Below, in pieces: positions 8,500 to 17,364 of a stretch of DNA of 64,000 bases. The stretch is taken from NCBI GenBank assembly GCA_965223875.1, contig OZ245024.1, forward strand, positions 1,675,456 to 1,739,455, in the 5' to 3' direction. Numbering within the stretch: the stretch's first letter is position 1; each line of letters starts with the position of its first letter. The position numbers and the translations under genes are program-made. This DNA is from Candidatus Multivoradales bacterium. Its GTDB lineage: Bacteria; Acidobacteriota; Thermoanaerobaculia; Multivoradales; JAHEKO01. Under the pieces are notes generated by a model. That model saw nothing but the letters and a program-made list of their open reading frames with translations. It was not told the DNA's origin and ran no database searches.

Positions 8500-8784
8500 A
8501 TGCGCCGCTACCACCTCTACATTCTCACCAACCCATTCCGAACACTCTATGTCGGCGTCACCGGCAACCTGCGACTTCGCCTCGAGCAGCATCGTGCCGG
8601 CGAGGGATGTGAGTTCACGCGCCGGTATGGTGTGGACACGCTCGTCTACGCGGAGGAATACCTCTGGGTGCTCGATGCTCTGGAACGCGAAAAGCAGATC
8701 AAGCGCTGGAGACGGGCCAAGAAGGTGGCGTTGATCGTACGTGCGAACCCCGAGTGGGAAGATCTTGCGACGACGCTGTGGTAG
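8500..8784 (+). CDS. Stand-alone GIY-YIG nuclease (YhbQ/UPF0213-like)
   Basis: YHLYIL...LYVGVTGNL..R..QH, FT.RY....LVY.E and EREKQIK.W.R..K...I...NP.W.DL motifs; ATG at 8500. Confidence 0.93.
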   Translation: MRRYHLYILTNPFRTLYVGVTGNLRLRLEQHRAGEGCEFTRRYGVDTLVYAEEYLWVLDALEREKQIKRWRRAKKVALIVRANPEWEDLATTLW

Positions 8785-8799: not shown

Positions 8800-8994
8800 G
8801 GGATCTCTCCACTTCGCGACCTACGGTCGCTACGGTCGAGATGACAATGGAAGCATCGGCCGGCAGTCGAGTCGGCGACCCGCTGGCGCCTTGTCATCCC
8901 GAGCGGAGCGAAGCGGAGTCGAGGGATCCCGCGACGACCTGACGGTGGTCGCCGGCATCCAGGCCGAGGAGGGATCTCTCCACTTCGCGACCTA
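8800..8994. repeat. Family-B palindromic repeats directly downstream of the GIY-YIG gene
   Basis: GGGATCTCTCCAC...GTCGAGATGACA (8800-8846), TGTCATCCCGAG...GAGGGATCCC (8892-8930), and a third copy from 8971 interrupted by IS630 (continues 10146-10169). Confidence 0.85.
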
Positions 8995-10143
8995 GTGTCC
9001 CGTGCGGCTAGTTTGTTTACACATGGGCCGACTTGGCTTTGTTGACGGCGTCGAGGATGGTCTGTGCCGATTTGGTCCACTGAAAGGGTTTGGCATTGCG
9101 CTGATTATGGATCTCGATGTAGCGCCGGATCGCGTGCTTGAGATCTTCGACGCTGGTGAAGACGCCGCGGTGGATCGCTCGCCGCTCAAGCTTGGAGAAC
9201 CAGGTTTCGACCGCGTTGAGCCACGACGCACTGGTGGGTGTGAAGTGAAAGTGGAAGCGCGGATGGTCGGACAAGAAGTGCTGGATGGCCTCTGTCTTGT
9301 GTGTGCTGCTGTTGTCCAAGATGAGATGGAGGTCGAGCTGCCGAGGCGTCGAGCGCTCAATTTGGTGCAGAAAGTCGAGAAACTCCTTTGCCCGGTGTCT
9401 CTGGGTGACCCGGCCGAGGACTTCCCCAGTCGCCACATTGAAGGCAGCGTAGAGACTCGTCGTTCCGTGCCGTTTGTAGTCGTGGGTTCGCCGCTCGATT
9501 TGACCAGGACGCATCGGCAGCATCGGCTGCGTACGATCCAGCGCCTGGATCTGGGTCTTCTCGTCCACCGACAAGACCATGGCATTGTCCGGCGGATTCA
9601 AGTACAGCCCGACGACATCGATCACCTTCTCGGCAAACTCGGGGTCGTTGCTGATCTTGAACGACTTGATCCGATGGGGCTTGAGGTCCGCCGCTGCCCA
9701 CACCTTGCGGACCTGCCACTGGCTCACCTCAGCGTACTCGGCCATCAGGCGGGTACTCCAGTGTGTGGCTTCCCGTGGAATACGCTGCGTCGTCAAGAAC
9801 AGAATCCGCTCCACGCTTTCCGGGTCGATCGTTGTCGGTCGTCCGGGTCGAGGCCGGTCCGTCAAGCCGGCGATGCCCTCCGCAGCATAGCGCCGCTTCC
9901 ACAGGTAGACCGTCGGTCGACTCACATGAAAGGTGCTCGCGATGCTCTGGATCGAGTGGCCCTCTTCGAGCGCCAGGACAATCCGTGCTCGCAACGTCTC
10001 TCCACTGCGCGCGGTCTTCGTCCGAAGCCATCGCTCGAGCTCCGCCCGATCCCGCTTCGCCAATCGAAACTCTTGATCTCCTGCCATGCCAGCAGTACAT
10101 CATGAACGCATCTGACTGTAAAGTTATTTACCGCACGGGACAC
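8995..10143 (-). mobile_element. IS630-family insertion sequence (1149 bp)
   Basis: 13-bp perfect TIR GTGTCCCGTGCGG / CCGCACGGGACAC; TA duplicated at 8993-8994 and 10144-10145 (CTAG target). Confidence 0.95.
9017..10087 (-). CDS. IS630-family DDE transposase
   Basis: N-terminal HTH with PRPGRP; SVDEK, LILDN and SWLNAVE catalytic triad; uninterrupted ORF. Confidence 0.96.
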   Translation of the reverse strand: MAGDQEFRLAKRDRAELERWLRTKTARSGETLRARIVLALEEGHSIQSIASTFHVSRPTVYLWKRRYAAEGIAGLTDRPRPGRPTTIDPESVERILFLTTQRIPREATHWSTRLMAEYAEVSQWQVRKVWAAADLKPHRIKSFKISNDPEFAEKVIDVVGLYLNPPDNAMVLSVDEKTQIQALDRTQPMLPMRPGQIERRTHDYKRHGTTSLYAAFNVATGEVLGRVTQRHRAKEFLDFLHQIERSTPRQLDLHLILDNSSTHKTEAIQHFLSDHPRFHFHFTPTSASWLNAVETWFSKLERRAIHRGVFTSVEDLKHAIRRYIEIHNQRNAKPFQWTKSAQTILDAVNKAKSAHV

Positions 10144-10170: not shown

Positions 10171-10956
10171 CTAGCGGGAGTATTCCTGGCGAATCGCCGT
10201 CACCCAGGCCCAGAGCTGGTCGAGCTGCTCGGGGGTGAGGGAGTCCTCGTAGGGAGGCATGGGTAGGGTCTGGCGGCTCCAGGCGCGACGGGTGAAGGGG
10301 TTGGCGAGGCGCTCCAGCTTGCCGGTCTCGACCCATTCGTCGAACTCGGCGCGGCTCTCGACCATGTGATCGAAGTTGCTCCCCACGAATCCCGGGATGA
10401 AGCCGCCGATCGAGCCGGGATTGGGCAGGCCGCCGGCGCCCTCGATGCCGTGGCACGAGAGGCAGCCCTGTTCGCGTGCGAGCTGCCGGCCGGCCTGGGC
10501 GACCTCGTCACCCGGGGCGGCCAGTCCCTCGACGGCGCTCGACCAGGCGGTGAGGTCGTCGATCTCCTCTTCGCTGAGACGGTCCTCGTAGGCCGGCATC
10601 CGGATCCGCTGCTCGGCCATGCGGGCGGAAACCTCGAGGTCGAAACGCCAGGACTCGGGCATGCCGTGACGGATGAACTGCTCGATCTCCTCCACCGACT
10701 CGGCGTACATCATCGCGTTGCCGGCCTCGAAGCGGGGCACGGACCCCCAGCGGCTTCCCGGATTGGGAATCTCGGTGCCCCGGTAGGGATCGTGGCAGGC
10801 CACGCAGCCCTGCTCCACCGACAACTGGCGCCCGCGCAGCAGAGGGTTCTGCTCCGAGTGCCAGAGCCAGCCCCTGAGGGCGAACGGGGCGGCCAGGGAG
10901 CAGACGGCGAGGAAGAGGACGAGGGCGAGGGCCAGGCGGAGTTTGGGGCGGGGCAT
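10171..10956 (-). CDS. Di-heme cytochrome c
   Basis: Two CXXCH motifs (CVACH, CLSCH), each followed by a distal MP methionine; N-terminal membrane/signal segment. Confidence 0.88.
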   Translation of the reverse strand: MPRPKLRLALALVLFLAVCSLAAPFALRGWLWHSEQNPLLRGRQLSVEQGCVACHDPYRGTEIPNPGSRWGSVPRFEAGNAMMYAESVEEIEQFIRHGMPESWRFDLEVSARMAEQRIRMPAYEDRLSEEEIDDLTAWSSAVEGLAAPGDEVAQAGRQLAREQGCLSCHGIEGAGGLPNPGSIGGFIPGFVGSNFDHMVESRAEFDEWVETGKLERLANPFTRRAWSRQTLPMPPYEDSLTPEQLDQLWAWVTAIRQEYSR

Positions 10957-11075
10957 GGGGGAAGATTACCCGTTTTGGAGGGAGCCTTCTCCCTGTCTGG
11001 ACCAGAACGAGCGATAGCGAGGCGTCTGTTCCCTGATACCTCGAACGGAGCGAGTGGTAGCGAGCCGTCGTTCCT

Positions 11076-11114
11076 TGTCATCTCGACCGGAGCGAGCGTT
11101 GGCGAGCGCAGTGG
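11076..11114. repeat. Family-B repeat, left part (interrupted by the IS1111 element; continues 12561-12569)
   Basis: TGTCATCTCGACCGG...GCAGTGG joined to AGAGATCCC after the IS recreates a full family-B unit. Confidence 0.85.
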
Positions 11115-11176
11115 AGGCAGGATGAAAGGGTGTCCCCCTCACGTTGGTGGAGTATCCACCAGAAAGGAGGAGGACA

Positions 11177-12211
11177 ATGTCGAAGGATCATTACGTTGGA
11201 TTGGATGTTCACCAGACGAGCACGAGCTATGCGGTCTTGGAAGGATCGGGTCGCTTGGTGGAAGAGGGCGTTCTGGCGACCGCTCCGGATCGTCTGGTGG
11301 GTTGGGTGAGCGGGCTGTGCGGTCGAGTGCACCTGACGTTCGAGGAGGGTCCGTACGCGGAGTGGCTCTACGAGCTGCTCGAGCCGCAGGTTGCCGAGCT
11401 CGTGGTGGCGAATCCACGGCGGCACGTCAGGACAGGCGAGGGCAAGAGCGATCGGGTGGATGCTCGGGACCTGGCCGAGCGTCTACGCGGCGGCTTTCTG
11501 GTGCCGGTGTACCACGACCGGGGACGTCTGCGGGATCTGCGTCATGGGGTCGATGCGTACCGGGACCTGGTGCGCGACAGTGTGCGTCTGCAGAATCGCC
11601 GCAACGCTCTGGCGCGGTCTCGGGGCCTGTCGGTGGACCAGCTACTGGCTGGAGCGTCGCTGGGCTGCTCGACAGCCGACCAGCGCTTCCGCTGGCTGAG
11701 CGACGAGCTTGCAGCTGTCGACGCGATCCAGGCCGAGGCCGAGCGGGTACTGAAGCGGGCGGCCCGGCGCTCGAGCGCCTGTCGCCTACTCCAGACGATC
11801 CCGGCGATCGGTCCGATCCGCTCGACGACGATCGTCGCCAAGCTACGCACCCCACATCGCTTCCGCACCCGGCGCCAGCTGTGGAAGTACGCCGGCTTGG
11901 CCGTCGTCACCCATTCCTCGAGCGACTACGTCGTTGGACCTCGGGGACTCGAACGACGCCACCGGCAGTCGACCCGGGGACTCAATCGTCACTACTGCCG
12001 AGCGCTCAAAGAAGTCTTCAAGTCAGCCGCCATCGACGCCTCCAGGCGCGGACCGCTACGCGATGCCTACGAGGCGAGGCTGGCCGAGGGCCAGCGACCC
12101 GAACTGGCGACACTGACCATCGCACGCAAGCTCGCGGGAACCTGCCTGGCGGTGTGGAAGAGCGGACAACCCTTCGACGCCGGCAGGCTCAGACAGCACC
12201 ACGCAACTTAG
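11177..12211 (+). CDS. IS110-family DEDD recombinase/transposase
   Basis: YVGLDVH, FEEG and KSDRVDA (DEDD); LLQTIPAIGPI, YAGL....SS and ARKL motifs; strong GGAGG SD before ATG 11177. Confidence 0.96.
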   Translation: MSKDHYVGLDVHQTSTSYAVLEGSGRLVEEGVLATAPDRLVGWVSGLCGRVHLTFEEGPYAEWLYELLEPQVAELVVANPRRHVRTGEGKSDRVDARDLAERLRGGFLVPVYHDRGRLRDLRHGVDAYRDLVRDSVRLQNRRNALARSRGLSVDQLLAGASLGCSTADQRFRWLSDELAAVDAIQAEAERVLKRAARRSSACRLLQTIPAIGPIRSTTIVAKLRTPHRFRTRRQLWKYAGLAVVTHSSSDYVVGPRGLERRHRQSTRGLNRHYCRALKEVFKSAAIDASRRGPLRDAYEARLAEGQRPELATLTIARKLAGTCLAVWKSGQPFDAGRLRQHHAT

Positions 12212-12267
12212 GCCGGGCCCGAAGCGGGGTCGCGCGGTCATCGATCGAAGCTCGACGAATACGGTTC

Positions 12268-12397
12268 GAGGGTGAGCCTCCATGGGATCTCTGGTCCAAG
12301 TGCCGGTCACGACACCAAGACCCTGAGTGGAGCCTAGGCCCCCTCCGTGAACCTGACTCTGCCATGGGCCCGAGAGCCCCAGATAGAAGCGTGGTTC
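12268..12397 (+). ncRNA. Putative bridge/seek RNA core (target-binding and donor-binding loops); the transcript is probably longer
   Basis: Stem GAGGGTGAGCCT/AGGCCCCCTC encloses GGGATCTCT and AGTGGAG (match the target site); stem GAACC/GGTTC encloses CTGCC and ATAGAAG (match the circle junction). Confidence 0.8.
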
Positions 12398-12540
12398 CTC
12401 TGAGAGAACACACAAACGCAGAGCCGGCTACGGCTTCGATCCTCACAAAGAACCATCACGCCCCGCCCCAAACCCGACCTAAACACTGCAAACGGGGGAT
12501 GCAAACCCAAGAGGGTATCCCCACAGGGGGAGTCTACCTC

Positions 12541-12546
12541 TTGACT
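12541..12546 (+). promoter_or_regulatory. Outward -35 box that could form a junction promoter on IS circularisation
   Basis: TTGACT near the right end; after joining the ends a 17-nt spacer places CAGGAT from the left end at -10. Confidence 0.45.
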
Positions 12547-12560
12547 TTGCCTTTCATAGA

Positions 12561-12716
12561 AGAGATCCCACCTCGGTGTGGGATCTCTCCACTACGGCTC
12601 GCTGCGCTCGCCTCCGGTCGAGATGACAAGGAGAAGGGCGGTGGCTGCGCTCGCCTCCGGTCGAGATGACAAGGAGAAGGGCGGTGGCAGCGCTCACCAC
12701 CGGTCGAGATGACAAG
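12561..12716. repeat. Family-B repeats plus three 43-bp tandem partial copies
   Basis: AGAGATCCC, inverted unit 12580-12628, and a 43-bp period starting at 12602, 12645 and 12688. Confidence 0.85.
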
Positions 12717-12728
12717 AACCGAAGCCAG

Positions 12729-12759
12729 AAAAGAAGGGAGGGGCCTCGCGGCCCCTCCC
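12729..12759 (-). terminator. Rho-independent terminator
   Basis: 10-bp stem GGGAGGGGCC/GGCCCCTCCC with a U-rich tail on the minus strand, 30 nt after the stop of 12789-13148. Confidence 0.75.
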
Positions 12760-12788
12760 GGGTCAGCTCCGTCGCGGACCGCGGCCGG

Positions 12789-13148
12789 TCAGCCGGCGGC
12801 CTTGGAGCCGGTAACCGTGACGATCTTCATACCGTCGCGCTCGGAGAGCTCGCCGGTGACCTCGGCCATCTCGCCGGCCAGGTCCTTGAGCGCCTCGTAG
12901 GGGGCGCCGTTCGAGTGGTTCGCGGCCAGCAGGACGACGGTACCGTCCTCGGCCAGCAGGCCCATCGGCTGGCCGCCCTTGACACAGCTCTTGGCGCAGC
13001 CGGCGTGGTCGGCGCCCTTGGCGCCCTGGTTGACGTAGCAGGCCAGGTCGAGGACCTCACCGGTCCAGGTGGCCTCCTCGGCCTGAGCCACCGGAGCCGC
13101 CATCACGGCGGCGGCCATCATGGCGAATGCGATCAGACGTCTGCTCAT
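12789..13148 (-). CDS. Small exported protein with a C...H..CA..C motif (OB-fold-like)
   Basis: Signal peptide, GGAGG SD, conserved-looking Cys/His pattern, downstream terminator. Confidence 0.8.
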   Translation of the reverse strand: MSRRLIAFAMMAAAVMAAPVAQAEEATWTGEVLDLACYVNQGAKGADHAGCAKSCVKGGQPMGLLAEDGTVVLLAANHSNGAPYEALKDLAGEMAEVTGELSERDGMKIVTVTGSKAAG

Positions 13149-17031: not shown

Positions 17032-17364
17032 TGTCATCCCGAGCGCAGTGACCGGAGGGAACGGAGTCGAGGGATCCCTCCACTGCGCTCGCTTCGCGAG
17101 CTCCGGTCGGGATGACAACCGGACGGGAGGATGGCGGTCGGCGCGCCGTGCCCTCCGATCGGGAGTAGACCGCCTCAGGGCTCGAGGACCGCCAGGGACC
17201 TGGCGAGCCAAGGGAACGGAGTCGAGGGATCCTCCGCTGCGCTCGCTTCGCGAGCTCCGGTCGGGATGACAACCGGACGGGCGGATGGCGGTGGGCCTGC
17301 CGTGCCCTCCGGTCGACGGTAGATCGCTTCAGGGTTCGAGGGCCGCCAGGGCCTTGGTGAGCCA
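17032..17364. repeat. Family-B repeats within a ~155-bp direct duplication
   Basis: Head-to-head units sharing GGGATCCC (17032-17117); 17056-17210 repeated at 17211-17364. Confidence 0.85.

Follow-up and report, generated by a model that had tools for sequence, protein, structure and literature searches.

A putative RNA-guided recombinase of the IS1111 group and its predicted two-loop RNA in a Candidatus Multivoradales genome

A 64-kb stretch of the Candidatus Multivoradales bacterium genome (contig OZ245024.1), hereafter the window, to whose positions all plain coordinates refer, contains at 11117-12560 on the plus strand an insertion sequence of 1444 bp which consists of a 60-bp left end, a gene for a protein of 344 amino acids (aa) and a non-coding right end of 349 bp (12212-12560). 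Our analysis indicates that this element is very probably an intact member of the IS1111 group of the IS110 family, encoding a DEDD/Ser recombinase that is guided by a two-loop RNA from the plus strand of the right end. An earlier note on this DNA had proposed an IS1111-type recombinase with a readable bridge RNA, and every sequence string and coordinate given there is present in the sequence as listed, among them the intact 344-aa open reading frame (ORF) at 11177-12211 and the 349-bp right end that follows it.

Three copies of the element are present in the genome (5.06 Mb, 2 contigs), each of exactly 1444 bp from GCAGG to CATAGA, and all are inserted at the same point, between AGTGGAG and AGATCCCAC of one type of repeat, with flanks that diverge beyond that repeat. 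Only 6 positions, every one of them within the ORF, distinguish the window copy from the other two, and the right end with its RNA region is therefore identical across the three copies. The sequence at 11107-11129 reads CGCAGTGG-AG-GCAGGATGAAAGG and that at 12550-12572 reads CCTTTCATAGA-AG-AGATCCCACC, which gives a target site of AGTGGAG/AGATCCCA with the core dinucleotide AG, inside a palindromic host repeat. The AG core, which the earlier note had taken to be common to the empty target and the circle junction, stands at both junctions of all three copies.

On the interpretation that we favour, the 344-aa recombinase would bind and work with a non-coding RNA that is transcribed from the right end on the plus strand and has its structured core at 12262-12403. 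In the target loop of this RNA TGGGATCTCT would pair with the top strand of the core and right target and AGTGGAG with the bottom strand of the left target and core, and in the donor loop ATAGAAG would stand for the right-end tip plus core and TCTGCC for the core plus left-end tip. The excised element would circularise, joining TTTCATAGA-AG-GCAGG, the RNA would bridge this circle junction and the site AGTGGAG/AGATCCCA in the palindromic host repeat, and the recombinase would exchange strands at the common AG core. Such a system may also be reprogrammable.

Conserved RNA fold and covarying guide segments

Relatives for comparison were drawn from genomes and metagenomes. Of 401 genomes from the phylum to which the host belongs, 23, the element's own included, had protein matches with an E value of 1e-20 or better, and none of the relatives in the other genomes exceeded 49% protein identity. 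A metagenome scan with a protein alignment added 80 further loci at 39-45% identity, and a single-protein search of genome contigs returned 5 distant or partial loci (L021-L025) that were left out of the analysis. The ends, cores and flanks of the relatives were called from a right-end motif, TTGAC-N-CCTTTYATAGR, found 330-405 nt past the stop codon in 12 of the 20 genome loci, and from a mirrored motif that is also present at the left end.

The homologues share a conserved two-loop RNA. RNAalifold, run on a MAFFT-based alignment of 10 sequences, recovered both closing stems at the coordinates proposed in the earlier note together with a small hairpin in the second loop. A covariance model of the kind suggested there (R1; 140 positions and 19 pairs), built from relatives at up to 45% protein identity, gave 93 matches in 100 sources, with one match in the 64-kb window and exactly one per copy of the insertion sequence genome-wide, and the same search found no stand-alone copies of the RNA in the element's own genome. 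In an alignment which was fitted to R1 and thereby favours the structure, the helices are 97.0% paired across 90 distinct sequences, a figure that falls to 90.7% for shuffles and to 39-48% if the 3' partners are displaced by 1-3 columns. Compensatory changes are seen in 14 of the 19 pairs, including 8 of the 10 pairs in helices 1 and 2, which close the target loop, and 4 of the 5 in helix 3, which closes the donor loop, and none of 500 shuffles reached any of the five measures used. The MAFFT-based RNAalifold result is independent of R1 and agrees with its structure. Pairs of the U-G and G-U type are frequent (UG:70, GU:57, UG:39), and because these would become A-C mismatches on the opposite strand we read the RNA from the plus strand.

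The target loop holds two guides. The string GGGATCTCT at 12284-12292, already pointed out in the earlier note, extends by one base to the 10-mer TGGGATCTCT from 12283, and the core AG is matched by the CT that ends this top-strand guide and by the AG that ends both the bottom-strand guide and the left donor guide. In the genome loci (n=12) the right end holds a 6-10-nt reverse complement of the core and right flank at position 72-103 and a 7-9-nt copy of the left flank and core about 40 nt beyond it, the exceptions being one locus without the top-strand match and three without an exact bottom-strand match. For a comparison across all usable loci the guide windows were set from the helix anchors and matches were counted with mismatches tolerated, omitting elements without a called end, those with a core disagreeing with the left donor guide and duplicate guide windows. 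The top-strand guide matched its own target at 7 or more of 9 positions in 30 of 32 distinct elements, and at 8 or more in 25 of 32, compared with 34 of 984 cross pairings (3.5%) at the former level. The bottom-strand guide reached 7 or more of 9 against its own left target in 28 of 42 distinct elements and in 98 of 1716 cross pairings (5.7%), the figure for own targets being lowered because the left ends of the metagenome loci were called from crude patterns. The window element itself scores 9/9 for the top-strand and 7/9 for the bottom-strand guide. These counts supersede an earlier one of contiguous matches (25/33 and 25/50, respectively) and bear out the expectation of the earlier note that guides should co-vary with their targets.

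The likelihood of such matches arising by chance was estimated from 20000 shuffles of the right end minus its last 14 nt. None of them (0/20000) yielded a top-strand match of 10 nt or longer anchored at the core; a left-target match of at least 7 nt arose in 336 (1.7%) and a left-donor match of at least 7 nt in 283 (1.4%), and the top-strand, left-target and left-donor matches together were likewise found in 0/20000.

In the donor loop the left guide follows the right-hand tip of the element. The 7-mer made up of the right-end tip and core lies at right-end position 171-202 in 12 of 12 genome loci, across the cores AG, AC, CG and GC, with guides in the relatives that read ATAGAAC, ATAGGAC (where the tip is ATAGG), ATAGACG and ATAGAGC, and it equals tip plus core in 33 of the 34 metagenome loci in which both features could be called. 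The core of the relatives is mostly AC (68 of 72), with single cases of CG, GC and AT. AG was found in 1 of 72 by regular expression; L041, which has CT, AG and AG at the corresponding guide ends, shares it, as probably does L043, and the AG core is rare in the clade but not unique to this element. The right donor guide appears to be the weakest of the four and owes its assignment mostly to its position. A general rule by which it would pair with the core was considered and dropped, because the two bases after GC vary among the relatives. Of the donor guides proposed in the earlier note ATAGAAG is thus well borne out by the relatives, whereas CTGCC is so only in part.

Two copies of a relative in one genome (L029 and L051, genome G120) have a left tip that is one base shorter, with TATT in place of GCATT. 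Their core is CG, as given by the left donor guide and the right junction, and their bottom-strand guide, TGCAGCC followed by CG, lies one base out of register with it.

Table 1. Features of the insertion sequence, its predicted RNA and the adjoining host repeat, in window coordinates
Feature	Position	Strand	Basis
Left part of host repeat, outer arm CCTTGTCATCTCGACCGG through left target AGTGG	11074-11114	+	Direct reading; same repeat flanks all three copies
Left junction: CGCAGTGG 11107-11114, core AG 11115-11116, element start GCAGG 11117-11121	11107-11121	+	Direct reading
Core dinucleotide AG, left copy	11115-11116	+	AG at both junctions, all three copies
Left sub-terminal inverted repeat ATGAAAGG, 8 bp	11122-11129	+	Reverse complement of 12550-12557; same motif in same place in relatives
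Transposase/recombinase gene, 344 aa	11177-12211	+	ORF; AAGGAGGAGG directly before
Conserved structured core of predicted bridge/seek RNA	12262-12403	+	Sole match of covariance model R1 in window, 111.7 bits
5' strands of two helices closing target-binding loop (12267-12272, 12276-12279)	12267-12279	+	Pair with 12341-12346 and 12336-12339
Predicted target guide to top strand (core + right target), TGGGATCTCT	12283-12292	+	10-nt reverse complement of AG+AGATCCCA
Hairpin between the two target guides	12293-12322	+	-9.8 kcal/mol, z -1.9; mean z -1.67 over 88 distinct relatives
Predicted target guide to bottom strand (left target + core), AGTGGAG	12326-12332	+	Equals left target plus core
3' strands of helices closing target-binding loop	12336-12346	+	RNAalifold and covariance counts
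5' strand of helix closing donor-binding loop, GAACC	12349-12353	+	Pairs with 12393-12397
Candidate right donor guide TCTGCC	12358-12363	+	Core G + GCAGG at left tip: 5 Watson-Crick pairs and one G-U
Small hairpin within donor-binding loop, GGGC / GCCC	12366-12379	+	Helix 4, 94% paired
Predicted left donor guide ATAGAAG, last 5 nt of element + core AG	12383-12389	+	Same rule in 12/12 genome loci and 33/34 metagenome loci
3' strand of helix closing donor-binding loop, GGTTC	12393-12397	+	Pairs with 12349-12353
-35-like hexamer TTGACT, 14 nt from right tip	12541-12546	+	Direct reading
Right sub-terminal inverted repeat CCTTTCAT, 8 bp	12550-12557	+	Direct reading; kept in relatives
Right junction: element end TTTCATAGA 12552-12560, core AG 12561-12562, flank AGATCCC 12563-12569	12552-12569	+	Direct reading
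Core dinucleotide AG, right copy	12561-12562	+	AG at both junctions, all three copies
Right part of host repeat: right target AGATCCCA, loop, intact second arm GTGGGATCTCTCCACT, outer arm GGTCGAGATGACAAGG	12563-12631	+	Direct reading

The predicted recombinase and its place among known systems

The 344-aa protein contains PF01548 (DEDD_Tnp_IS110) at residues 7-144 with 48.1 bits against a Pfam cut-off of 29, and PF02371 (Transposase_20) at residues 202-267 with 50.3 bits against a cut-off of 21.3. Its only relatives of solved structure in the PDB are the recombinases of IS621 and ISCro4, with an alignment over the full length and an E value of 1.8e-10 to 8wt6 (IS621). Residues D10, E56, D92 and D95, which are invariant across an alignment of the window protein with nine clade members (A2), align with D11, E60, D102 and D105 of IS621, and S248 aligns with S241, the nucleophile among the catalytic residues whose roles are described for IS621 (PMC11208158). 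With both Pfam domains and the catalytic residues D, E, D, D and S present, the protein is predicted from its sequence to be an IS110-family DEDD/Ser recombinase. The nearest proteins in a large protein collection form nine clusters at 73-87% identity (P0002-P0010), the bulk lying at 42-48%, and compared with the clade members the middle region carries a 15-residue deletion and a 6-residue insertion (A2).

In published accounts IS1111 elements are separated from IS110 elements by a long downstream non-coding region and sub-terminal inverted repeats (PMC11187229; PMC11208160), the criteria being repeats of 7-17 bp, a transposase of 330-350 aa and a GL-P----S(t)G motif (PMC11187229). The 60-bp left end, the 349-bp right end and the 8-bp repeats of the element point to this layout and, together with both Pfam domains, agree with the IS1111-type assignment made in the earlier note. 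The length of 344 aa falls within the range for these transposases, and in the corresponding motif, GLAVVTHSSS, the GL and S are kept while the P and G are not. Siddiquee et al. 2024 describe IS1111 transposases as co-purifying with RNA from the downstream non-coding region (PMC11187229), and Durrant et al. 2024 give right-end bridge RNAs as predicted for 93.0% of IS1111 elements (PMC11208160).

Like the IS1111 seekRNA elements ISEc11, ISPa11, ISKpn4 and ISPst6, as described in PMC11187229, the element has a downstream non-coding region, sub-terminal repeats and a transposase of 330-350 aa, a top-strand match that lies 5' of the bottom-strand match and overlaps it at the insertion point, and a site-specific insertion without duplication beyond the shared core. 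In that account the order of the two matches in IS1111 seekRNAs is the reverse of that in the IS110-type ISEc21. The right-before-left guide order to which the earlier note drew attention is indeed present, but as it is described for all IS1111 members tested in PMC11187229 it represents the norm of the family and no peculiarity of this element. Set against the named IS1111 elements by description, the element differs in that a donor-type second loop is also readable and co-varying, in having S/T after GL----- followed by S or A and not G, and in its target repeat.

With IS621, as presented in PMC11208160 and PMC11208158, the element shares a DEDD RuvC-like domain and a Tnp domain with a serine nucleophile, a two-loop RNA with separate target and donor guides, a core dinucleotide common to target and donor, and a natural target that is a repetitive palindromic sequence; repetitive extragenic palindromic (REP) sequences are noted as targets of such elements (PMC11208160). 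IS621 encodes its RNA in the left end, ahead of the gene, and has a CT core and sub-terminal repeats of 2-3 bp. The present element has its RNA in the right end, an AG core and 8-bp repeats, and its protein shows low sequence similarity to that of IS621. A further likeness is to ISPpu9 of Pseudomonas putida, which in the description of PMC12288879 also belongs to the IS110 family, is inserted in repetitive extragenic palindromes, carries a gene for a small RNA downstream of that for its transposase and is present in several copies per genome. ISPpu9 has in addition stand-alone copies of its RNA gene (PMC12288879), of which there are none in the element's own genome; the relatives L108 and L052 do have them.

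In these two relatives extra partial matches to the bridge RNA stand right after the right tip of the element (L108:2624-2740, L108:2885-3001 and L052:981-1108, minus), and the right flank goes on as the DNA beyond the bottom-strand guide ordinarily does. This arrangement resembles the outcome of an insertion of the element into the guide-coding part of a second RNA gene copy, or else of the formation of tandem units consisting of the RNA only.

Judged by sequence, the element fits the known kind in every anatomical respect tested, and the known working of such elements is unchanged by the present findings. What seems particular to it is modest, namely an AG core in a clade with mostly AC, the serine after the nucleophile, the deletion and insertion in the middle region and a repeat that is new to the cited portions of these papers. 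It provides a clean natural example of an IS1111-type bridge RNA in which all four guide segments are assignable. Its clade of at least 90 relatives displays natural retargeting and natural core changes (AC, AG, CG, GC, AT) and is for this reason a useful comparative set for the target, donor and core rules in the IS1111 branch, which is less studied than IS621, as well as a possible source of recombinases with other core preferences. The element also accounts for three insertions in one host repeat family and marks this family as a hot spot.

Weighing of alternative explanations

A number of points weigh against an RNA-guided recombinase with four working guides, in addition to the fitted alignment behind the pair counts and the crude left-end calls behind the bottom-strand score. 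Folded as a single sequence the whole right end has a z of -0.98, no better than shuffles, and Rfam 15 gave no match in 10900-12800 at E up to 1. The NCBIfam profile NF033542 ('IS110 family RNA-guided transposase') is matched over its full length (E 3.9e-37) with 128.2 bits, below the cut-off of 140 bits, and we therefore regard the protein as a divergent member of the IS110 family; this score does not speak against the fold or family assignment. At the position following the catalytic serine the present protein has S and most of the clade A, in place of a conserved G of IS621 that is described as contacting D102 (PMC11208158). As regards the right donor guide, CTGCC at 12359-12363 is a 5-nt match that is not significant alone. 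The aligned segment of the relatives, A(A/T)AGC, pairs with left tips GCATT or GCAAT, leaving the third tip base consistently mismatched and the core without regular pairing, and the apparent covariation of this guide belongs partly to one clade. Finally, a circle-type junction is absent among the contigs of four sequencing runs, which as contigs cannot reveal rare forms.

The weak right donor guide, imperfectly paired in the relatives, would also suit a system in which only a short seekRNA with the target loop is functional, the ends of the element being recognised via the flanking target halves and the sub-terminal repeats and the donor-like matches guiding nothing. In line with this, PMC11187229 describes the RNAs on IS1111 transposases as mainly 82-96 nt in length and by their two target matches, and circle formation by ISEc21 as needing flanking target bases. 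We nevertheless consider this unlikely given that the left donor guide tracks tip plus core in 12/12 and 33/34 loci, across the cores AG, AC, CG, GC and AT and both ATAGA and ATAGG tips, that the closing helix of the donor loop is conserved and 4 of its 5 pairs have changed in a compensatory manner, and that bridge RNAs with a donor loop are predicted for IS1111 members (PMC11208160). There is likewise a small chance that the element is a recently expanded insertion sequence which is now inactive or silenced and whose RNA features are inherited and unused. The lack of a circle junction among the assembled contigs would agree with this, within the limits of contigs in showing rare forms, as would the poor -10 (CAGGAT) in the hybrid promoter of a circle, the consensus scan that found no promoter in the region and the serine that replaces the conserved G after the nucleophile. 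On the other side, all three copies keep open 344-aa frames and differ at 6 of 1444 positions with none in the RNA, the five catalytic residues are all retained and many exact targets are still unoccupied.

It is highly improbable that the target-like strings of the right end are no guides and instead reflect a host-repeat fragment acquired by the element or matching by chance. The target palindrome exists in about a hundred copies, so that fragments could be captured, and the 7-nt matches each arise in 1.4-1.7% of shuffles. However, the two target strings are non-contiguous, unlike in the repeat, being split by a 30-nt hairpin within a loop that is closed by covarying helices; no shuffle among the 20000 reproduced all three matches jointly, and the same positions in the relatives match other, unrelated targets.

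The host repeat and neighbouring features

The host repeat is a nested palindrome of approximately 125 bp with outer arms CCTTGTCATCTCGACCGGAG and CTCCGGTCGAGATGACAAGG and inner arms AGTGGAGAGATCCCAC and GTGGGATCTCTCCACT. The 15-mer AGTGGAGAGATCCCA has 14 exact sites in the genome, and 66 with at most one mismatch, and the 14 exact, unoccupied sites reveal the full repeat unit of about 125 bp. The outer-arm motif has 212 matches in the chromosome, mostly between 1.5 and 4.0 Mb. At least two variants of the inner arm exist, GAGAGATCCCAC, which is targeted by the element, and GAGGGATCCCTC, which is not. In the window the repeat family is found at 8846-8892, 11076, 12628-12714, 17032-17271 and 18968, and three partial outer arms (12628, 12671 and 12714) stand in tandem immediately to the right of the element.

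The second arm of the occupied repeat in the window, left intact by the insertion, is an exact 15-mer target on the minus strand (C1 - 1688048), and every occupied repeat likewise keeps in its intact second arm an exact target of opposite orientation. As the target forms a perfect palindrome, a single strand of the repeat offers partners to both target guides: its left arm can pair with TGGGATCTCT, and CTCCACT in its right arm with AGTGGAG. We see a slim chance that the form of the repeat recognised by the element is not the duplex but an extruded or single-stranded one, as at a replication fork for instance. If that were so, the three copies and the 14 free exact sites would offer substrates for inversions and deletions of host DNA guided by the RNA.

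The earlier note had spoken of a GIY-YIG-associated repeat. A repeat arm does lie 122-239 bp downstream of the domain in both small GIY-YIG genes of the genome, one at 8509-8724 in the window (G000:C1:1683964-1684179) and one at G000:C1:3508297-3508515, but most of the 212 arm motifs are without such a neighbour, so that the name is a loose one. A third GIY-YIG match falls within an open frame of 604 aa and is without a repeat arm.

The contigs of the four sequencing runs, all from one study, were compared with 10900-12800, and at the 6 positions that vary they show the alleles of the two remaining copies. One contig of 456 nt skips from 11113 to 12559, with 2 mismatches on each side, and short loose contig ends run from the left flank directly into AGAGATCCCACCTCGG. 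Both were considered as excision events and rejected; they are most simply other unoccupied copies of the repeat and therefore provide no evidence of excision.

A consensus scan of 10950-12750 found no sigma-70-like promoter. After circularisation the -35-like TTGACT would stand 17 nt from CAGGAT (11118-11123), and TTGACA is found at the matching place in the relatives, where this motif was part of the pattern used to find their ends. The same region contains three terminator-like hairpins, where 0.8 would be expected; one, at 12524-12543, is encoded by the plus strand and lies near the end of the approximately 137 nt (12404-12540) that separate the structured RNA core from the -35-like hexamer. 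About 1 kb to the left of the element, at 9017-10087 on the minus strand, a 356-aa ORF with a helix-turn-helix start and the motif LILDNSSTHK resembles a DDE transposase of another family.

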